Assembly: GCA_963803805.1 (NCBI GenBank)
Contig: CAWDOD010000006.1
Span: 160,001 to 224,000, forward strand
Source of the DNA: an uncultured cyanobacterium
GTDB taxonomy: Bacteria > Cyanobacteriota > Cyanobacteriia > Cyanobacteriales > CAWCAG01
DNA length: 64,000 nt
Direction: 5' to 3'
The stretch's first letter is position 1. The number at the start of each line of letters is the position of its first letter. Below, one piece after another: positions 9,825-49,665 of the stretch. The notes beneath the pieces are model-generated. The model had not been told where the DNA came from, searched no databases, and worked only from the letters and a program-made list of their open reading frames with translations. The position numbers and the translations under genes are program-made.

Positions 9825-10478
9825 TCAACTAGATGACGATTCTAAGGCAAAACGTACCAATTCAGCGCGGTTACTAGTTTCTGTCTTCCTCAGCAGGCTA
9901 CTAACGTACTTTTCGATGGTACGATGACTTAAGTGCAATTGTTGGCCAATTTCGATGTTAGAAAGTCCTGTAGCTAATAAATTAAGGACTTGTTGCTCTC
10001 GTTCGGTGAGATGGAAAGATTCTGGTAGGGGAGGAGGAGATTTTGGTGATTGTGAGGTTTTAGTTAAAGATTTTTGAGAAGAAAAACGTAACTCCGACTG
10101 GACAACTTGCGATCGCTCTAGCAAGTTACGAATAACCGCTCCCAACTCTTCCATTTCAAAAGGCTTAGGTAAATAAACATCACAGCCAACTTGATAACCA
10201 AGAATACGCTCTTCTGTGGTGTTACGTTCTGTGAGAAAAACTACAGGCATTAAGCGGAATTGTGGGCGCTGACGCACCTGCTTAACTAATTCATAACCAT
10301 TTTTTCGGGGCATTCTAATGTCAGCTACCATCAAATGGGGATGATAGGTTTCTAGCCGCTCAAGGGCCTCTTGTCCATCACAAGCTGCGACAACCGAGTA
10401 GCCTGATAGTTCCAGGTAATCACTAACAGCTAACCGAACACCAGGATTGTCATCAGCAACTAATATTAACAGAGGCAT
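9825..10478 (-). CDS. NarL/LuxR-family response regulator (Ycf29-like)
   Basis: REC domain (ADD, DIRMP, KPF) plus LuxR HTH (LTEREQQVL...GLSNIEIG). Confidence 0.88.
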   Translation of the reverse strand: MPLLILVADDNPGVRLAVSDYLELSGYSVVAACDGQEALERLETYHPHLMVADIRMPRKNGYELVKQVRQRPQFRLMPVVFLTERNTTEERILGYQVGCDVYLPKPFEMEELGAVIRNLLERSQVVQSELRFSSQKSLTKTSQSPKSPPPLPESFHLTEREQQVLNLLATGLSNIEIGQQLHLSHRTIEKYVSSLLRKTETSNRAELVRFALESSSS

Positions 10479-10658
10479 ATTTTTTTTTGCTACTCTACAG
10501 AATTACTATACAATTAATTTTCTGTAAAGCATAGTTAATATTACTTATAGTATTTCTTGTGGTTATGAGGTACAAACTTTTTGCTTTGAGGGAGTGGGAT
10601 AAGAGTACGATTCCAGTACAGCAAAGATGAAATTAAAATAGAGCCAACCGATAGATAA

Positions 10659-11111
10659 TTAAACTTCTTTAACTGAACCAAGGAACTTTTGCGGAGGATT
10701 ATCAGGCTCACTACACTTTTCTAACGAAGCGATCGCAGTACCTTGTGCATGATGTTCTTTCTGTCTTTTAACATAGTTAACCGCCACATCTAATTGTTTA
10801 CTACCTAAAGAAAAAACCCCATATCCGCTTTGCCACTTAAATACTTGTTCTGAAACAAGTTCCTTGTTGAGGTAATGTGTACTGCTACCTTTAATCTTTT
10901 TAACAAACTCAGAAATAGGCATTTGAGGAGGAATCGAAGCCACAAGGTGAAGATGATCTTCTGTACCACCGAGGGCGTGAATGAGACAATTAAGGGCATC
11001 GGCCTTACCAATAATGTAGCGGTGGAGTATGACTTCTTTTTGAGGAATAATTAGAGGAAGTCGGTTCTTCGTCGTCCAAACAAAATGGTAATACAAACGC
11101 CAGAGGGCCAC
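10659..11111 (-). CDS. tnpA: Y1 HUH transposase, IS200/IS605 TnpA or RAYT-like; no tnpB nearby
   Basis: YHFVWTTKNR, HUH motif DHLH, KGSS, WQSGYGVFS and catalytic Tyr in YVKRQKEHH; GTG start with GGAG upstream. Confidence 0.9.
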   Translation of the reverse strand: MALWRLYYHFVWTTKNRLPLIIPQKEVILHRYIIGKADALNCLIHALGGTEDHLHLVASIPPQMPISEFVKKIKGSSTHYLNKELVSEQVFKWQSGYGVFSLGSKQLDVAVNYVKRQKEHHAQGTAIASLEKCSEPDNPPQKFLGSVKEV

Positions 11112-11141
11112 AATATCTTTGCTCCGAATTGCGAATCAATA

Positions 11142-12433
11142 ATAATGGTATCAACCCTATACCGCTAAGGATTAAAATCCATAGCTAATAGCTTAAGTCA
11201 TCTTGAAGATGACTCCCAAAACTTCGGTGGAAAACAGGATAACAAAACCTTGATTTAATTTCTCCCCCTAGTCATGTTCAGATGACTTTGGCTATTAGCC
11301 ACCGAATTAATTCGGTGAGCGGGTAACATTAATTTAATCGCGCCAATTAACGATAATGGTATCAACCCTATACCGCTAAGGATTAAAATCCATAGCTAAT
11401 AGCTTAAGTCATCTTCAAGATGACTCCCAAAACTTTGGTGGGAAAACAGGATAACAAAACCTTGATTTAATTTCTCCCCCTAGTCATGTTCAGATGACTT
11501 TGGCTATTAGCCACCGAATTAATTCGGTGAGCGGGTAACATTAATTTAATCGCGCCAATTAACGATAATGGTATCAACCCTATACTGCTAAGGATTAAAA
11601 TCCATAGCTAATAGCTTAAGTCATCTTCAAGATGACTCCCAAAACTCTGGTGGGAAACAGGATAACAAAACCTTGATTTAATTTCTCCCCCTAGTAGTCT
11701 TCAGATGACTTTGGCTATTAGCCACCGAATTAATTCGGTGAGCGGGTAACATTAGTTTAATCGCGCCAATTAACGATAATGGTATCAACCCTATACTGCT
11801 AAGGATTAAAATCCATAGCTAATAGCTTAAGTCATCTTGAAGATGACTCCCAAAACTCTGGTGGGAAAACAGGATAACAAAACCTTGATTTAATTTCTCC
11901 CCCTAGTCATGTTCAGATGACTTTGGCTATTAGCCACCGAATTAATTCGGTGAGCGGGTAACATTAGTTTAATCGCGCCAATTAACGATAATGGTATCAA
12001 CCCCATACTGCTAAGGATTAAAATCCATAGCTAATAGCTTAAGTCATCTTGAAGATGACTCCCAAAACTCTGGTGGGAAACAGGATAACAAAACCTTGAT
12101 TTAATTTCTCCCCCTAGTCATGTTCAGATGACTTTGGCTATTAGCCACTGAATTAATTCGGTGAGCGGGTAACATTAATTTAATCGCGCCAATTAACGAT
12201 AATGGTATCAACCCTATACTGCTAAGGATTAAAATCCATAGCTAATAGCTTAAGTCATCTTGAAGATGACTCCCAAAACTTTGGTGGGAAACAGGATAAC
12301 AAAACCTTGATTTAATTTCTCCCCCTAGTCATGTTCAGATGACTTTGGCTATTAGCCACCGAATTAATTCGGTGAGCGGGTAACATTAGTTTAATCGCGC
12401 CAATTAACGATAATGGTATCAACCCTATACTGC
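11142..12433. repeat. Tandem array of six 211-212 bp REPIN-like units plus a 24-bp terminal partial unit
   Basis: Units start at 11142, 11353, 11565, 11776, 11988, 12199 and 12410 (partial). Each holds two inverted ~55-bp halves made of nested palindromes. Confidence 0.97.
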
Positions 12434-12463
12434 AAATCAACAATAACCAGCATCCCTAAAGAT

Positions 12464-12493
12464 AAAAAAAGGTGGCCAACTGGCCGCCTTTTT
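12464..12493. terminator. Rho-independent terminator of the porin gene, potentially bidirectional
   Basis: A7-GGTGGCCA-AC-TGGCCGCC-T5 hairpin about 25 bp past the porin stop. Confidence 0.8.
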
Positions 12494-12517
12494 ATTTAAA
12501 ACCTCGATTCTGAGTGA

Positions 12518-14194
12518 TTAGAATGTGAAGGTTGTACGCAAAACACCAACATAAACAGTGTCGTTAGCGTCATTGTGTTCAGGGTTGAAGATAACTATCA
12601 CTCCAGGAGTGATGAGAACGTTATTGCTAACTCTGTATTTGTACAATGCTTCTAAGAGATAAGAAGTATCAGGATCTTCACGGCCTGCAATATCATTGCT
12701 AGTTACTTTAGGAGGCATACCAAACGCAAGACCTAAAACGTTACCTTCACCACCTAAATCTTTGAAACCAACACGGGCTGTCCAATTCCAAATATCAGCA
12801 CTATTGCCATTAACTTCGTCTTCTGCATCTACGTAACCAACCCAACCACCAACACTAATAGTGTCGGTGAGGGCGAAGTCACCTTGAATACCAAAGCGGT
12901 TAGCAGATGTTGGTTGATCAACGCCTCCAATTCTAAAGGGATCGTTAGCGTTGCTGCTACCTACACTACCACCAAGACTAACATCGTCACCGTCAGGGGC
13001 GCCATCGCCTGAATAGTAACCACGACCGTAGGTAGCAGATAAAGCTAACTTATCTTCAAGAAGACTCAAGTTAAGCTGAGCTAAAGCAGTATAACTTCCG
13101 TCGAACAAAACACCTTCTTTATCAGCAGGGTTATTCGCACTAGGAACACCATAAGCTAGTTGCAAATTAGCGTTATCGCTAAACTCAAAGGTTAGCCCAG
13201 CACCTGCATCCACAGGAAAGCGGTGTACCGCAGGATTACGACGATTAAAACGAGATAAAGCACCAGTACCGCTGCTGGCAAATAGAGGGTTAGTTTCCTC
13301 AAGTAGGTCATTTTCACTAATTACTGGAGCAATTATAAAGCTAACTCTATCACCCAAAGGAGCTTGGTAGTACAATCTGTTAAGATTAACATTATTTCCT
13401 TGGTCTGCTTCATAACCCAAACGGGCCATGTCTGTACCTGTTCGGTTGTCCATTGGGAAGGTATTACCAGCTTGTAGACGAGTCCTTAAGCGATCTCTGC
13501 CAGTAAAGCTAGTGTCTAATGTTAAGCGGACGCGATCGCTTAAGGTAATATTGTCGTCAACGTCTACAGTACCATTACCACCAGTAACAGCTTTTTTATC
13601 ACCAAAAGCACTATCTAAACTGAAGATAACCTCACCTTTCAACTTAGTGGTAGTGGAGAATTGATGATCTTCAACAAAAGCAACACGCCCTTCTAAGTCA
13701 TCTACCCTTGCACCCAAGGTAGCTAACTCTGCTTCAAACTCTTGAACCAAACGACGTAGAGTAACTAAGTCTTCACCATCTACACTGCCGATGTTTTCTT
13801 CTACCCACTCCATACAACGGCTCACCGCTGCTGCAAACTCATAGCGAGTGATGTTGCGTTGACCTTTGAAAGTTCCGTCAGGATAACCCACAATACAGCC
13901 ATACTTGTCAACCATCTTTTGTACAGCACTAAACCAGAAAGGATCGATATCTGATAGCTGGTTAACGCTAGTAACCTGATCTAATGATGTTTCGTCGCCA
14001 TTATAGTCGTTGATTTGTTGCAACATCTCTTCTGTAGAGAGAGATGCGTCGGCAACTTCAACAGAAGCATTTGCTTCGCTAACAACTGCTTCGGTAGCAG
14101 GAGTTTCAGCAGCGAAGGAACTATTAGTGACAAACAAAGAAGCACCTAGTACAGCAGGAGCAACTTTACAAACTTGCCAGAGCAATTTTGACAT
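12518..14194 (-). CDS. Cyanobacterial outer-membrane porin (SLH + OprB-like barrel, SomA/SomB type)
   Basis: Signal peptide, SLH (YGCIVGYPDGTF...TRYEFAA), coiled coil, FSTTTKLKGE, C-terminal LRTTFTF. Confidence 0.93.
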   Translation of the reverse strand: MSKLLWQVCKVAPAVLGASLFVTNSSFAAETPATEAVVSEANASVEVADASLSTEEMLQQINDYNGDETSLDQVTSVNQLSDIDPFWFSAVQKMVDKYGCIVGYPDGTFKGQRNITRYEFAAAVSRCMEWVEENIGSVDGEDLVTLRRLVQEFEAELATLGARVDDLEGRVAFVEDHQFSTTTKLKGEVIFSLDSAFGDKKAVTGGNGTVDVDDNITLSDRVRLTLDTSFTGRDRLRTRLQAGNTFPMDNRTGTDMARLGYEADQGNNVNLNRLYYQAPLGDRVSFIIAPVISENDLLEETNPLFASSGTGALSRFNRRNPAVHRFPVDAGAGLTFEFSDNANLQLAYGVPSANNPADKEGVLFDGSYTALAQLNLSLLEDKLALSATYGRGYYSGDGAPDGDDVSLGGSVGSSNANDPFRIGGVDQPTSANRFGIQGDFALTDTISVGGWVGYVDAEDEVNGNSADIWNWTARVGFKDLGGEGNVLGLAFGMPPKVTSNDIAGREDPDTSYLLEALYKYRVSNNVLITPGVIVIFNPEHNDANDTVYVGVLRTTFTF

Positions 14195-14758: not shown

Positions 14759-15919
14759 TCAAAAAGAAGAGCCTTCTAATCTTTCTAGGATAACGTTGCG
14801 ATTATTAATAGCGGATTGGAAGTCTGGTTTAATCTCCAAAGCTTTGTCATAGGATAATAGCGCTTCTTGGTAGTTCTCTAATTCGTAGAGAATATTGCCG
14901 CGATTGTACCAAATTCTACTATCATTAGGTTTAATTTCTAGAGCTTTTTCATAGGATAATAGGGCTTCTTGGTAATTCTCTAATTCGTAGAGAATATTGC
15001 CGCGATTATGCCAAGTTTCACTATTATCAGGTTTGATTTCTAAAGCTTTGTTATAGGATAGTAGGGCTTCTTCGTATTGTTCTAATTTACTTAGGGAAAC
15101 ACCACGATTATGCCAAGTTTCACTATTATCAGGTTTGATTTCTAAAGCTTTGTTATAGGATAATAGTGCTTCTTCATATTGTTCCAAGTTACTTAGGGCA
15201 GCACCACGGTTATACCAAGTTCTACTATCATCAGGTTTAATTTCCAAAGCTTTGTTATAGGATAGTATAGCTTCTTCATGTTGTTCTAATTTACTTAGGG
15301 CAACACCACGGTTATACCAAGTTCTACTATCATCAGGTTTAATTTCCAAAGCTTTGTTATAGGATAGTATAGCTTCTTCATGTTGTTCTAATTTACTTAG
15401 GGCAACACCACGGTTATGCCAAATTCTACTATCATCAGGTTTAATTTCTAAAGCCTTATCATAGGAAGCTATCCCCTCTTCATGTTTTCCTACATCTCCT
15501 AAAGCATTGCCGCGATTATACCAAGCTTTATAGTGGTTAGGATTAATTTCCAAAGCTTTGTCGTAGGAGTCTATTTCCTCTTGATGCTGCCCTAAATCTC
15601 CTAGTACAACACCACGATTATTCCAAGCAGCATCGTAGTCGGGTTTAATTTCTAAAGCTTTGTCGTAGGATAACAACGCTCCTTGATATTGTTTCAACTT
15701 TTTTAAAGCGTTGCCACGATTATACCAAGCTACATGATTATCAGGTTCAATTTCCAAGGATTGATCATAAGCCGCTATGGCCTCTTGATAGCTTTTCTCT
15801 CCGTGTAATTGATAAGCTTCAGAAAAAAGCTTGTTTGCTCTGGATTTGCCCGTGAAACCACAAGCAGATAGAGAGAGAATGAGAATAACAGGAAGAGTTA
15901 ATTTGTAGCTAAGTTTCAT
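14759..15919 (-). CDS. TPR-repeat lipoprotein
   Basis: Lipobox LSAC; about ten 34-aa TPRs (W.NRG..L...YEEA..SYNKALEIKP), several near-identical at DNA level (102 bp). Confidence 0.9.
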   Translation of the reverse strand: MKLSYKLTLPVILILSLSACGFTGKSRANKLFSEAYQLHGEKSYQEAIAAYDQSLEIEPDNHVAWYNRGNALKKLKQYQGALLSYDKALEIKPDYDAAWNNRGVVLGDLGQHQEEIDSYDKALEINPNHYKAWYNRGNALGDVGKHEEGIASYDKALEIKPDDSRIWHNRGVALSKLEQHEEAILSYNKALEIKPDDSRTWYNRGVALSKLEQHEEAILSYNKALEIKPDDSRTWYNRGAALSNLEQYEEALLSYNKALEIKPDNSETWHNRGVSLSKLEQYEEALLSYNKALEIKPDNSETWHNRGNILYELENYQEALLSYEKALEIKPNDSRIWYNRGNILYELENYQEALLSYDKALEIKPDFQSAINNRNVILERLEGSSF

Positions 15920-16109
15920 AGATTGAGTGATGCAGAATCAAGATGACAATTAAAGTTGAGCTGTATTTTAGTTAGGCTCAAGAAAAGTTTCTTTGTTTCT
16001 CAAAGATAAATATTCTTAGCAACATAAACATAAAATAAGTAGTAATTATTGCGATCGCTCGTATTATTACTAATGCTTGCGATCGCAATTAATTTGTTTT
16101 TATCGTCTA

Positions 16110-17210
16110 CTAACTATTAAGAGAACTTCCTATTTTTTCGAGGAGATTGTTGCGGTTGTTGATTGCTGTTTGATTGTTGGGGTTAAGTTCAATAGCTTTT
16201 TGATAAGATTCTAGAGCTTCATCATAGCGCTCAAGAGATTCAAGGGCAAAACCGCGGTTGTTCCAAGCTTTACTATAGTCAGGTTTAATCTCCAAGGCTT
16301 TTTCATAAGAGACTAATGCTTCTGAGTGTTTTCCTAAGAATGTTAGAGCCGTACCACGATTAAACCAAGCTGAACTATTATTAGGGTTAATCTCCAAACC
16401 TTTGTTATAAGATGCTAATGCTTCAGCATATTTTCCTAAGTTCCTTAGAGCAACGCCACGATTAAACCAAGCTGAACTGTTGTTAGGCTCAATCTCTAAA
16501 GCTTTATCATAGGATGTTACTGCTTCTGTGTAATTTTCTATGTTTACTAGAGCATCGCCACGATTAAACCAAGCTTCACTGTCATTAGGTTCAATCTCTA
16601 AGACTTTATCGTAAGATGCTATTGCTTCGGTGTAGTTTCCTAGATTAGATAAAGCCAGTCCGCGACCATACCAAGCTGAACTCTTTTTAGGTTCAATTTC
16701 TAAAGCTTTGTCGTAAGATGCTATAGCTTCGGTATAGTTTCCTGACTCTATTAAAGCACCACCACGATTATTCCAAGCTGAACTATCGTTAGGTTTAATC
16801 TCCAAAGCTTTGTCATAGGATGCTACTGCTTCTGTGTAATTTTTTATGCTCACTAGAGCATTGCCTCGGTTATACCAAGCTGAACTCTTGTTAGGCTCAA
16901 TTTCTAAAGCTCTGTCGAAGGAAGCAATCGCCTCTTCGTACTTTTCTAGTTTCACGAGGGCAGCACCCCGATTTGTCCAAGCCTTGTGGTAGTCAGGCTC
17001 AATCTCTAAAGCTTTGTCGTAAGATTCGATTGCTTTTCCATAACGCCCTTGACTGAAGAATTGATTACCTTCGGAGTAAAAATCTTCTGCTGTGGTTGCT
17101 TCAGCAACTTCTATTGCTGGGGCTGCTAACACAGGTGGTTCAATCAAATTACCAGTAGATAAAGATAAAGCAACAATGCCAGGAAGAGTTAGTAAGTAAC
17201 GAAGTTTCAT
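16110..17210 (-). CDS. Secreted TPR-repeat protein, paralogue of 14759..15919
   Basis: Signal peptide similar to the neighbour (MKLRYLLTLP vs MKLSYKLTLP); about nine TPRs. Confidence 0.9.
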   Translation of the reverse strand: MKLRYLLTLPGIVALSLSTGNLIEPPVLAAPAIEVAEATTAEDFYSEGNQFFSQGRYGKAIESYDKALEIEPDYHKAWTNRGAALVKLEKYEEAIASFDRALEIEPNKSSAWYNRGNALVSIKNYTEAVASYDKALEIKPNDSSAWNNRGGALIESGNYTEAIASYDKALEIEPKKSSAWYGRGLALSNLGNYTEAIASYDKVLEIEPNDSEAWFNRGDALVNIENYTEAVTSYDKALEIEPNNSSAWFNRGVALRNLGKYAEALASYNKGLEINPNNSSAWFNRGTALTFLGKHSEALVSYEKALEIKPDYSKAWNNRGFALESLERYDEALESYQKAIELNPNNQTAINNRNNLLEKIGSSLNS

Positions 17211-22245: not shown

Positions 22246-22319
22246 GTAATGGCTAATAGCTAGTGGCTAGTGGCTAGTTGCTAATAGTTTTCACTCACTC
22301 ACCCCATCTCCCTAGCTCC

Positions 22320-39453: not shown

Positions 39454-39489
39454 TTGCTAATGGCTAGTTGCTAATGGCTAGTTGCAATA

Positions 39490-46724: not shown

Positions 46725-49418
46725 ATGGGACGTTCTCTTAAGGTTTCCCCTGATAATATTAAACGAGTTAAGGATGCGGTTAAACGTAATGGTTATACTA
46801 GTCAGAATGCTTTTATAAAAGCTACAGGTATCTGTAGTAAATCGACTTACAGTAATTTCTTTCGAGGCAAACCAATCGATTTTGATTATTTTGCAGAAAT
46901 CTGTGACAAGCTGGGTTTAGATTGGCAGGAAATATCTTCCCAAGAAACGAATAATCAGCCAACAGAATTACCCTTACCTCTCACCTACGAAAAAGATACT
47001 TGGGTAGGGAGGGAAGAAACTTTAATAGAATTAAAACTCAAGCTACAAGAGAAAATTCGTTTGTTAGTTATTACCGGATTAACGGGGCAGGGAAAAACAG
47101 CTTTAGGGGAAAAGTTAACGCGGGATTTACGGCAGGATGGTAAATGGCATTATTTAAACCCAGCTAATTTTGACGATGCCACCACTCCCAAGGATTTTGT
47201 TGGTTTTGCGGGAAAGTTATTAACAGAGTTGGGAGAAGAACTTAACCCAGAAAGTCTTAATAATGCACAATTTTTGTTCAACAAATTAATAGCTAAATTG
47301 CGTCATCGGGCTTATTTATTACAGTTTGATTCTCTGGAGGTTTTGTTACAAGGTAATGACTTTGTTGATAGTTGGTGGGAGGAATTTTTTAATTCTTTTT
47401 TGGCTAACTCTCAAAGTCGCTTTATCCTCACCTCCCAAGTTTTTCCTCGTCAGTTGTACAAAAGATACAAAGAGTTTCTTGGTGAATATCAATTACCAGG
47501 GCTTGGGGAAAAGGAACAATGGCAACTGTGGCAGAAGTTGTTTTCTCTTCAGGGGAAGGAGTTGCAACGGGACAGTTTACCAGGGCAACATCTCCAACAA
47601 ATCAGCAAGGTTTATGAAGGACATCCTTTGGTGATTAAGGTAATTGCAGGGGAAATTTTAGATGCCTATCAAGGGGATGTGTCAGCTTATTACCAGAGGT
47701 ATGAGGAAGAGTTTACAGTAATTGAACGCAGCGACACCCATGAAGGTTTAGAAAACAAGGTTAGGGCCAGGGTGAAGGTTGCTTTAGCTAGGTTAAAGAA
47801 GGAAGCACCTACGGCATATAGTTTGCTGTTGCGGAGTTCAGTGTTTCGTTTGGCTGTGGTGGCAGATTTTTGGTTGGGGATGTTGCCGGGGGTTAAGGAG
47901 AGGGAAAAGAAAAGGGGCAGAAATGTTTTAGAGTCCCGTTGTTTGGTGATTGAAGAAGGAAATTTACTACGGCAACATAATTTGATTCGCAGCACGGCTT
48001 CTAGTTTGTTGCAGGAGGAGGAGGATTGGCAGGAGGTACACAAACAAGCGGCAAGGTTATGGTTGCAGGATTATGAAGCGGATGCAGAGGCGGAGAATTT
48101 AGTTAAGGTGCAGGGTTATTTGGAGGCGTTTTATCATTTTTGCGAGATTGAGGCTTGGGAGGAGGCTAGTGAAATTTTGGCGATTAAGATGGATACACCT
48201 ACTCAGGAAGATTTAGATAATCAACTGGGTACTTGGGGTTTATATCGCCAGCAGATTGATTTATATAGTCAACTTTTAAACAAATTAGATGATCATTGGC
48301 AAGGTATCTGTTTAACAGGTTTGGGTAATGCTTACTACAGTTTGGGAGACTATCACCAAGCCATTGATTATCACCAGCAGCGTTTAACCATCGCCCAACA
48401 AATCGGTAATCGCAACGGAGAAGGTTCTGCTTTAGGTAATTTGGGAATTGCTTACCACAGTTTGGGAGACTATCACCAAGCCATTAAATATCACCAGCAA
48501 CATTTAACCATCGCCCAACAAATCGGTGATCGCAACGGAGAAGGTAATGCTTTAGGTAATTTGGGAATTGCTTACCACAGTTTGGGAGACTATCACCAAG
48601 CCATTAAATATCACCAGCAGAGTTTAACTATCTTCCAACAAATCGGTGATCGCAACGGAGAAGGTAATGCTTTAGGTAATTTGGGAATTGCCTACGACAG
48701 ATTGGGAGACTATCACCAAGCCATTGATTATCACCAGCAACATTTAACTATCGCCCAACAAATCGGCGATCGCAACGGAGAAGGTACTGCTTTAGGTAAT
48801 TTGGGAATTGCTTACGACAGTTTGGGAGACTATCACCAAGCCATTGATTATCACCAGCAACATTTAACTATCGCCCAACAAATCGGCGATCGCAACGGAG
48901 AAGGTACTGCTTTAGGTAATTTGGGAATTGCTTACGACAGTTTGGGAGACTATCACCAAGCCATTGATTATCACCAGCAACATTTAACTATCGCCCAACA
49001 AATCGGCGATCGCAACGGAGAAGGTAATGCTTTAGGTAGTTTGGGCAATGCTTACGACAGTTTGGGAGACTATCACCAAGCCATTGATTATCTCCAGCAG
49101 CGTTTAACTATCGCCCAACAAATCGGTGATCGCAACGGAGAAGGTATTGCTTTGGCTAATTTGGGAAATACTTATTATAAACTTGAGGATTATTCTCAAT
49201 CTCAACAATACTCTCAAGCAGCATTAGCTATTTTTCGTCAAACTGGCTTTAAATATGGTGAGGCTACAGTACTTAATAACTTAGCTAGAATCAATGAAAA
49301 ATTAGGCAATCTGGAACTAGCCAAACAACAGTGCCAACAAGCCTTAGAAATAGCCACGGAATTAGGCATACCCTTAGTTAAAGAATGCCAAGAGTTGCAA
49401 GAAAAGCTGGGCAGTTAG
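46725..49418 (+). CDS. STAND/NB-ARC-type NTPase with N-terminal HTH-like domain and C-terminal TPR array
   Basis: Walker A GLTGQGKT, Walker B LLQFDSLE, ILTS, GHPL; seven near-identical 40-aa (120-bp) repeats. Confidence 0.88.
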   Translation: MGRSLKVSPDNIKRVKDAVKRNGYTSQNAFIKATGICSKSTYSNFFRGKPIDFDYFAEICDKLGLDWQEISSQETNNQPTELPLPLTYEKDTWVGREETLIELKLKLQEKIRLLVITGLTGQGKTALGEKLTRDLRQDGKWHYLNPANFDDATTPKDFVGFAGKLLTELGEELNPESLNNAQFLFNKLIAKLRHRAYLLQFDSLEVLLQGNDFVDSWWEEFFNSFLANSQSRFILTSQVFPRQLYKRYKEFLGEYQLPGLGEKEQWQLWQKLFSLQGKELQRDSLPGQHLQQISKVYEGHPLVIKVIAGEILDAYQGDVSAYYQRYEEEFTVIERSDTHEGLENKVRARVKVALARLKKEAPTAYSLLLRSSVFRLAVVADFWLGMLPGVKEREKKRGRNVLESRCLVIEEGNLLRQHNLIRSTASSLLQEEEDWQEVHKQAARLWLQDYEADAEAENLVKVQGYLEAFYHFCEIEAWEEASEILAIKMDTPTQEDLDNQLGTWGLYRQQIDLYSQLLNKLDDHWQGICLTGLGNAYYSLGDYHQAIDYHQQRLTIAQQIGNRNGEGSALGNLGIAYHSLGDYHQAIKYHQQHLTIAQQIGDRNGEGNALGNLGIAYHSLGDYHQAIKYHQQSLTIFQQIGDRNGEGNALGNLGIAYDRLGDYHQAIDYHQQHLTIAQQIGDRNGEGTALGNLGIAYDSLGDYHQAIDYHQQHLTIAQQIGDRNGEGTALGNLGIAYDSLGDYHQAIDYHQQHLTIAQQIGDRNGEGNALGSLGNAYDSLGDYHQAIDYLQQRLTIAQQIGDRNGEGIALANLGNTYYKLEDYSQSQQYSQAALAIFRQTGFKYGEATVLNNLARINEKLGNLELAKQQCQQALEIATELGIPLVKECQELQEKLGS

Positions 49419-49440
49419 GGAGCTGAGGAGCTGGGGTTTT

Positions 49441-49665
49441 GAGGAAATAACTCGACGTTTCAAGAAAAAAGCTTGACTTTTCGAGAAAATAACTCGGTGT
49501 TTTGAGAAAGAATGCTCGAAGTTTCAAGAAAATTGCTCGGCATTCCCAGAAAAAAGCTTGACTTTTCGAGGAAATAACTCGGCGTTTTGAGAAAGAATGC
49601 TCGAAGTTTCAAGAAAATTGCTCGGCATTCCCAGAAAAAAGCTTGACTTTTCGAGAAAATAACTC
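49441..49665. repeat. 21-22 bp tandem repeat with an 85-bp higher-order period
   Basis: About 10.5 units such as GAGAAAATAACTCGGTGTTTT and CAGAAAAAAGCTTGACTTTTC; a block of four units recurs. Confidence 0.9.

Follow-up and report, generated by a model that had tools for sequence, protein, structure and literature searches.

The Y1 gene and the hairpin array that precedes it

We analysed a 64,000-nucleotide stretch of the genome of an uncultured cyanobacterium (contig CAWDOD010000006.1, positions 160,001 to 224,000; hereafter the window), in which a gene of the Y1/HUH transposase family is preceded by a tandem array of palindromic units. The features of this locus are collected in Table 1. The reading frame of the Y1 gene is intact, with a GTG start where its homologues carry ATG, and its product matches the Pfam family Y1_Tnp (PF01797) with 91.7 bits. 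The neighbouring genes include no tnpB; their products are a GerE-domain response regulator, a porin of the OprB/SLH type and a 2-hydroxyacid dehydrogenase. On the 3' side (10479-10658) there is neither a repetitive extragenic palindrome (REP) nor any other related hairpin. Thus the description given in the initial annotation, of an intact tnpA-like gene with no tnpB and no matching hairpin downstream, holds on each point. The gene occurs once in its own genome, where the only other PF01797 match is a class-2 REP-associated tyrosine transposase (RAYT) on another contig.

Table 1. Features of the Y1 locus, in positions of the window, with strand and the basis of each assignment
Feature	Position	Strand	Basis
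Y1/HUH gene, by sequence of TnpA-Y1 subclass 1.2 type	10659..11111	-	150 aa; Pfam, motifs, alignment
Leader, 30 nt, from array to GTG start	11112..11141	-	GGAG about 10 nt before the start, read from sequence
Tandem array	11142..12433	.	Tandem Repeats Finder: period 211, 6.1 copies, 97% matches, score 2447
Array units 1-3	11142-11352, 11353-11564, 11565-11775	.	In-register alignment
Array units 4-6	11776-11987, 11988-12198, 12199-12409	.	In-register alignment
Partial seventh unit, first 24 nt	12410-12433	.	In-register alignment
L-type REP, unit 1	11162..11214	+	CCGC, hairpin 1 with GGATTAAAATCC core, GCTAATAGC box, hairpin 2; in every unit
R-type REP, unit 1	11267..11323	-	Hairpin 1 with CGAATTAATTCG core, GGCTAATAGCC box, hairpin 2; in every unit
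Linker between successive doublets, ~46 bp	11324..11369	.	In every unit; absent from all dispersed copies in the genome
G+C-rich hairpin between an A run and a T run	12465..12498	.	Interval from array to end of porin gene, read from sequence

The array starts 31 bp upstream of the Y1 start codon and consists of six units plus 24 nt, in agreement with what had first been reported for it. Its units measure 211 or 212 bp, a difference that lies in a single A-run, and are otherwise distinguished by few substitutions with a mosaic distribution. A period of 423 bp scores equal to that of 211 bp, which corresponds to a two-unit higher-order period. The two half-sequences quoted in the initial annotation occur in the units exactly as given. 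The 18-nt palindrome described there as perfect is so in five of the six units, and unit 5 carries one change.

Each unit is built from two convergent REP modules, one L-type and one R-type, which lie about 55 nt apart. A module reads, in order, CCGC(C), hairpin 1, a GGCTAATAGC box, about three bases and hairpin 2. The profile match of the R-type module covers 11267-11314, and its outer CCCGC end was assigned by inspection of the sequence. Conservation of unpaired positions is seen in CCGCC and in the 10-nt box GGCT(A/C)ATAGC, and an AAG directly before hairpin 2 is conserved in the REP family as well; the GT[AG]G or CGTC tag that marks the hairpin foot of REPs associated with RAYTs is not present. 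Both hairpins covary strongly. In an alignment of 79 REPs, 92.9% of the paired cells hold a pair, compared with 69.2% in shuffles, and two-sided changes occur in 265 cells, compared with 80; none of 500 shuffles reached the observed values. When the stem partners were slid against each other, at most 44.7% of cells were paired.

As single-stranded DNA, one unit folds with -37.4 kcal/mol (plus strand) and -36.7 kcal/mol (minus strand). Shuffled sequences average -16.5 and -17.6, which gives z = -6.1 for either strand, and 0 of 200 shuffles fold as well. Strong folding of this kind, in an array that adjoins the 5' end of the Y1 gene, is also what would be seen if the array encoded a repeated structured RNA, either as an array of small RNAs or as a long leader controlling the gene. 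However, the folding is equal on both strands, as is expected of DNA palindromes, and elsewhere the modules occur in both orientations relative to genes. An Rfam scan of 10400-12600 returned only a chance match to a plant microRNA (E 0.49), and promoter-like sites numbered 7, compared with 6.3 +/- 2.7 in shuffles. The rule-based scan called no terminators in the array region, and it made no call on the hairpin at the porin side, which by its appearance looks like a two-way terminator. The structured-RNA option raised in the initial annotation thus found no support, and we consider such an array very unlikely.

The possibility that the assembly has expanded one or two real units into six was weighed in the same way. 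The variation of unit length in the A-run only is typical of long-read error. On the other hand, the mosaic substitutions distinguish the units, and tandem clusters beside this gene family are common in other assemblies. Among public sequencing runs, one DNA run and no RNA run are listed as containing the stretch. In short Logan contigs from that metagenome run, which may be the source sample, the summed depth was 34.7 over part of the array and 6.76 over the Y1 gene; this roughly fivefold ratio fits several copies of the unit and does not give the copy number. An assembly artefact is the least probable of the explanations considered here.

The class of the Y1 protein was examined by family models, solved structures and motifs. 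The protein scores 81.1 bits with the NCBIfam equivalog for IS200/IS605 transposases (NF033573, cut-off 55) and only 20.9 bits with REP_Tyr_transpos (NF047646, cut-off 80). Its best sequence matches among solved structures are IS608 TnpA (2a6m, E 1e-9), two archaeal homologues and ISDra2 TnpA, while no TnpA-REP chain in the PDB matches it at E <= 0.01. Its HUH histidines and catalytic tyrosine line up with those of IS608 TnpA. Across 12 aligned sequences (the Y1 protein and 11 homologues), H53, H55, W93, Q94, Y113, Q117, H120 and H121 are invariant. These residues comprise the HUH motif (H53/H55 in DHLHLV), a WQ motif (W93-Q94) and the tyrosine motif YVKRQKEHH, which fits Y---Q--HH and not Y---NP. 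The Y1 protein ends in an LE...DNPP tail; its L130 and E131 are shared by all 12 sequences, most of which also have a D(D/N)PP patch.

These features were compared with the TnpA-Y1 survey of Quentin et al. (2018, BMC Genomics 19:475, PMC6006769), whose subclass 1.2 is characterised by Y---Q--HH, WQ, a length of ~148 aa, low copy number and hosts that are mostly Cyanobacteria or Bacteroidetes. By its sequence, the Y1 protein fits this subclass and not the class-2 RAYTs. The correspondence of the C-terminal tail with that of subclass 1.2 is one of position only, and the middle residue of the HUH motif is L, whereas the subclass consensus DH[IV]H has I or V. The family scores put the protein on the IS200/IS605 side, its motifs carry the subclass 1.2 signature, and the RAYT-like identity first suggested for it is not borne out by either the family score or the tyrosine motif.

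The class-2 RAYT of the same genome lies on contig C10 at ~342.6-343.2 kb (L025:1357-1908, minus strand). It has 183 aa, scores 186 bits with NF047646 and carries the motifs DHFH and YIHYNP; the genome thus holds two Y1 lineages. Using the profile hidden Markov model (HMM), we found no GGCTAATAGC-type REPs on the contig of this RAYT.

Association of the compound REP with the gene family

Homologues of the Y1 protein with 56-67% identity are present in many cyanobacteria. We examined the flanks of 80 homologous loci from named genomes of many families; the records are almost all cyanobacterial, and a few are titled "uncultured bacterium". Local repeats make up 33% of the bases in the 600 bp upstream and 30% in the 600 bp downstream, compared with 2.8% beyond 1500 bp, and 58 of the 80 loci have a repeat common to both flanks of the gene, mostly in direct orientation. 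The strict box motif occurs at 1.27 per kb within 700 bp of the gene and at 0.17 and 0.12 per kb further out. The REP profile HMM gave 334 matches in 75 loci, 303 of them within 700 bp, which corresponds to densities of 2.78 per kb within 700 bp, 0.13 per kb at 700-1500 bp and 0.08 per kb beyond. In 74 loci the gene has a REP within 700 bp, and in 49 it has one on both sides; the median distance is 45 nt for REPs after the gene and 98 nt for those before it. The REPs occur in both orientations relative to the genes. Their architecture is the same throughout, with different stem sequences and a box between the two hairpins that is conserved in sequence.

Tandem repetition is likewise found close to the gene. 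Repeats with a period of at least 60 bp occur within 700 bp in 23 of the 80 loci, and beyond 700 bp in 7 loci only, in about three times as much sequence. The proximal ones frequently have a period of 180-225 bp and 2-4 copies. The largest array among the loci seen is the one described here, with six copies. Similarly built tandem hairpin repeats also adjoin the genes of a sister Y1 clade (37-41% identical; L038 of G023 and others), with a 119-bp unit in two copies.

The link between the gene and a hairpin repeat without the GTAG tag, proposed from this locus in the initial annotation, is thus present here and in 74 homologous loci, and the repeat is also dispersed and extragenic. This finding differs from the published account, since Table 1 of the survey enters REP as "no" for subclass 1.2, and its passages describe the members as generally without IS200-type terminal structures and as lacking the properties of an insertion sequence (IS) (PMC6006769). 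The REP search of the survey was designed for class-2 (tnpAREP) genes and may for that reason have missed REPs of another build; according to the same passages, REPs without the GT[AG]G tag in classes 2.6 and 3 required manual inspection (PMC6006769).

Co-occurrence was measured in 151 genomes of the order, each of which was searched with the REP covariance model and the Y1 protein profile. The clade of the Y1 protein (clade A, profile score above 180 bits) is present in 34 genomes, as a single copy in 31 and as two copies in 3; 14 further genomes have the sister clade only (115-151 bits). Every one of the 34 clade-A genomes has at least 3 REP matches, dispersed and extragenic, and 27 have at least 20, with counting capped at 36 per genome, while none of the 65 genomes without REP matches has clade A. 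In its copy number the Y1 gene behaves unlike an ordinary multi-copy IS200.

A search of its own genome for the repeat, also suggested at the outset, recovered dispersed copies. The profile HMM finds 31 REPs, 12 of them belonging to the array. The remaining 19 are spread over 13 sites, each of which is extragenic and free of any covering open frame longer than 50 aa. REP pairs always combine one L-type and one R-type module, the doublet core recurs outside the array without the linker, and the dispersed stems retain pairing through compensating changes. Convergent REP doublets are also present in a further genome, G037.

Taken together, these results make it probable that the locus pairs a single-copy subclass-1.2 Y1 gene with six hairpin doublets of its family, and by analogy with RAYTs and their REPs we predict that the enzyme binds these hairpins in single-stranded DNA and cuts them. 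Because the repeat flanks this gene family across cyanobacteria, it is likely to be the enzyme's own DNA substrate. Our verdict is that this is a REPtron-like system, resembling bacterial interspersed mosaic elements (BIMEs), which is built on a Y1 branch other than the class-2 RAYTs. IS608 TnpA and E. coli TnpA-REP recognise hairpins on single-stranded DNA and cut nearby through a tyrosine. By analogy with these enzymes, the REP hairpins would be the recognition sites of the Y1 enzyme, and cutting and rejoining through the tyrosine would take place at a fixed unpaired site, which may be the box or the AAG just before hairpin 2. The dispersed doublets would arise by Y1-mediated single-strand transposition. 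The six-unit array would arise by unequal recombination or replication slippage, as in BIME-2, and not by repeated insertion.

Several observations weigh against this reading. REPs close to the gene were the training set of both the HMM and the covariance model, and finding REPs there is therefore partly circular; the fall-off of REPs with distance and the genome-wide matches are free of this circularity. REP matches also occur in 40 of the 103 genomes that have neither Y1 clade, with at least 20 in 13 of them, and the nearly closed genomes G133 and G138 are among those that are REP-rich. In the first sample, G021, G024 and G029 carry 39, 114 and 134 REP matches; in the profile search, G024 and G029 yielded ordinary IS200-type TnpA only, and G021 yielded no match. 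REPs without the gene could be accounted for by repeats that outlive it, by gene copies left unassembled in drafts or by a different mobilising enzyme. Moreover, related genomes are not independent, so that the co-occurrence counts overstate the support and are descriptive only. The Y1 protein itself has an end branch of 0.72 in a quick tree (median 0.054) and deviates at several near-invariant positions of the family, for example Y30H, which may reflect relaxed constraint. There is also no sign of recent movement in its own genome, neither near-identical dispersed copies nor a clean pair of filled and empty sites. Identity to the array unit ranges from 67 to 91% among the dispersed copies, and no two of these are identical. 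Only the array is young or homogenised, while the dispersed copies are old, and the REP system accordingly looks quiescent here apart from the array. Finally, some doublets are enclosed by outer inverted arms, in G037 as well as in two copies of the present genome.

These outer arms keep alive the explanation that the doublets are cores of MITEs (miniature inverted-repeat transposable elements) that are moved by another, DDE-type transposase, with the neighbourhood of the Y1 gene acting as a hotspot of landing or recombination. Outer arms are found in most of the 15 copies read in G037, in two copies here and in one in the congener G001, and the abundance of REPs in 13 genomes without the gene would be explained in the same way. 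Cyanobacteria are described in print as having MITEs of 127-224 bp, which contain several nested inverted repeats and lack a matching transposase (PMC3542288, PMC3184786). Yet most doublet copies in the present genome lack outer arms, and no clean target duplication was found. It would also be left to a hotspot to account for the 20- to 35-fold enrichment beside the gene in 80 loci of many families, for the short median distances on either side of it and for the REPs in every genome that carries it. We regard movement by another transposase as quite unlikely.

The armed doublets are of two kinds. In G037 (L145-L159), most of the 15 doublets read are nested in GAGATCTTGCACC-like outer inverted repeats, which lie about 8 nt outside the CCGCC ends and sometimes extend into a GCGATC word; the spacers between the REPs range from ~10 to ~190 nt. 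On three other doublets, ACTTGGAAGGTTG-like arms lie about 45 nt outside the REPs (present genome, C2:1205211-1205365 and C3:309692-309847; G001, C5:839897-840132, L165). The composite element with these arms is ~237 bp long and 84% identical between the present genome and G001.

Comparison of candidate empty sites with G001 (L007 and L014) gave no clean target duplication. For L007, the left flank alone was recovered. The flanks of L014 are 24 bp apart in G001 and 422 bp apart here. Part of this difference is additional unique sequence (55 and 36 nt) and part is a further small palindromic element, so that no clean ends were obtained. That element (L014:1753-1815, on C3 of the present genome) reads GGGCGACCC ... 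GGGTCGCCC and is absent at the matching site of G001.

History of the locus and origin of the array

The congener G001 retains a trace of the locus. The genes that neighbour the Y1 locus are ~85% identical in G001 and scattered in its genome. Downstream of the porin gene, the same distal junction is followed by only ~110 bp of remnant (L135:1385-1520), which comprises a degenerate R-type box with hairpin 1, the linker and words from the unit end, and which joins directly to the last 8 nt of the Y1 reading frame, with the junction in a shared AAAG. The locus is therefore ancestral to the genus, and in G001 the gene has been deleted together with most of the array. The junction contains the AAG that REPs of this family conserve at the foot of hairpin 2, so that the deletion may have been either a microhomology event or a Y1-type excision. 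In the one public run with the stretch, a contig of a relative skips from 10670 to 12509. This skip matches the G001-type allele and was rejected as an excision product.

G001 has a subclass-1.2 gene of its own elsewhere in its genome, which is 59% identical and groups with Xenococcaceae in the quick tree. Both flanks of that gene (L032, G001:C5:1760506-1763934) carry arrays of a 37-bp unit (4.1 and 6.9 copies) and a 105-bp unit, and its hairpins and box differ from those at the locus described here. There are hints that the REP type follows the enzyme clade. In the quick tree, for which 92 of 93 proteins were kept (L134 was left out), most Y1 proteins cluster by host family. The overall picture is one of mostly vertical descent with loss and replacement; the locus is not a fixed housekeeping one, nor is it an IS in multiple copies. 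The word domesticated, used for the system in the initial annotation, holds only in part, given a congener that has lost the locus and carries a 59%-identical paralogue elsewhere.

This history bears on the explanation that the gene is a decayed IS200-type IS, that is, a selfish transposase of which the REPs are the ends, the doublets gene-less palindrome-associated derivatives and the array an accident of recombination. Presence of the locus in one genome (G000) and only a remnant in its congener, whose own copy lies elsewhere, would be expected of such an element, as would the IS200/IS605 equivalog score, the proximity to IS608 and ISDra2 TnpA and the mostly direct repeats shared by the flanks of 58 loci, which resemble IS200 ends. 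Nevertheless, there is one copy in 31 of 34 genomes and never more than two, no copies are identical, and the proteins cluster largely by host family. The tyrosine motif and the C-terminal tail are those of a subclass described as lacking IS properties, the 3' hairpin is absent at this locus, and REPs greatly outnumber copies of the gene. A decayed IS200 is, in our judgement, unlikely.

The array itself most likely grew by local duplication, through unequal exchange or slippage between adjacent doublets. This conclusion is drawn from three observations, namely the linker that is missing from the dispersed copies, the mosaic variants and the two-unit period. The nearest analogue is the BIME-2 type of cluster in E. 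coli. The concatemer proposed in the initial annotation is thus better read as a local tandem duplication. Repeated site-specific insertion beside a CCGC word is a less probable origin that would look the same, since a tandem array has no fixed phase and part of a unit persists at the site in G001; a reading of exactly six units inserted next to a CCGC target was dropped on these two grounds. A broader proposal is that subclass 1.2 and the GGCTAATAGC-box REP form a cyanobacteria-wide REPtron with an origin independent of class-2 RAYTs, in which the enzyme itself would make head-to-tail arrays beside its gene by nicking at the box, followed by reinsertion of unit-length single-stranded circles or by rolling-circle priming next to that gene, so that the array would be a live record of its activity in cis. 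We hold this proposal to be possible, although doubtful.

The 46-bp linker was also considered as the promoter region of the gene. Among the upstream regions of 78 homologues, a GGGAATACTA-like motif is common to the Nostocales-type rows only, and the linker matches it weakly; the candidate was dropped.

Other repeats are present in the window. About ten tandem copies of a 21-bp unit (with higher orders of 42 and 85 bp), containing the palindrome TCGAG ... CTCGA, lie at 49436-49665, and a similar 21-22-bp repeat is found 650 bp downstream of the Y1 gene of G001 (L032:2597-2665). A 120-bp tandem repeat (7.1 copies, 94%) lies at 48320-49174. The 102-bp tandem repeats at 14826-17025 are inside TPR-like reading frames (open reading frame 14759-15919) and are thus coding and unrelated to the array. 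Heptamer-based tandem repeats of 14 bp, for example TGGCTAATAGCTAG, occur at 22250-22287 and 39454-39485, and one of them contains the box word; they resemble the short heptamers in tandem repetition that are common in cyanobacteria.

Comparison with known systems

REPs and RAYTs are the textbook case of a transposase that is kept by its host together with short hairpin repeats, in a role that is still unknown. If the system proposed here is confirmed, a Y1 branch close to IS200 has independently come by a repeat family of its own and of different build throughout the phylum, and the partnership would be recurrent and not a one-off. The "orphan" MITEs of cyanobacteria would gain a candidate mobilising enzyme, and the fixed 10-nt box between variable hairpins would be a convenient substrate for studying the choice of cleavage site. 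The published "no REP" entry for subclass 1.2 would be corrected.

The pairing of gene and repeat is recognised as RAYT/REPIN-like (REPIN, REP doublet forming hairpin) by the single copy of the gene, the adjoining repeat and the dispersed extragenic repeat. With REPtrons, as described by Bertels and Rainey (2011, PMC3116915), it shares a single-copy Y1 gene flanked by its own repeat, extragenic dispersed doublets that are convergent, a doublet that folds into one long hairpin and the alternation of two REP types, as in E. coli BIMEs and Pseudomonas REPINs. The flanking repeat stands on the 5' side, as six doublets, with nothing on the 3' side here and REPs on both sides in 49 of the homologous loci, and the dispersed population is small (19 REPs at 13 sites) as well as old. 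The differences from REPtrons lie in the enzyme, which belongs to the class 1 branch and scores far below the cut-off of NF047646, and in the repeat, which lacks the GT[AG]G/CGTC tag and in which each REP is compound, with two hairpins around the conserved 10-nt box. In addition, a class-2 RAYT is present elsewhere in the same genome.

The IS200/IS605 elements (IS608, ISDra2) are nearest in sequence and share the catalytic layout, as judged by alignment, and many homologous loci have hairpins on both sides of the gene. In contrast to these elements, the present gene is single-copy, where several near-identical copies of gene plus ends would be expected, has no tnpB and carries a different tyrosine-motif signature. 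Subterminal hairpins at both ends are likewise lacking, since there is none in 10479-10658.

The MITEs of cyanobacteria (Nezha; Anabaena, Wolk 2010, Fewer 2011; "type II", Anabaena sp. 90, PMC3542288; PMC3184786) resemble the doublets in their size of 127-224 bp, their nested inverted repeats, their intergenic position and the lack of a transposase with matching ends in the same genome. They were compared with the REP by description only, and the REP may equal one of the published families (PMC3542288, PMC3184786). Unlike the doublets, none of them is linked to a Y1 gene in the published passages (PMC3542288, PMC3184786). Our literature searches, which covered passages of main texts, found no paper that connects TnpA-Y1 subclass 1.2 with a repeat family.

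The closest agreement is with subclass 1.2 itself, as its passages in the survey describe it (PMC6006769). The tyrosine motif, the WQ motif, the length of ~148 aa, the C-terminal tail, the low copy number and the cyanobacterial host all correspond. The difference is that the subclass was published without REPs and as generally lacking IS200-type ends (PMC6006769), whereas the gene is flanked by a compound hairpin here and in 74 of the 80 loci. Overall, the system stands apart from the RAYTs by sequence and from IS200 by copy number and by its one-sided hairpins, and it fits subclass 1.2 in all respects save the published absence of a repeat.

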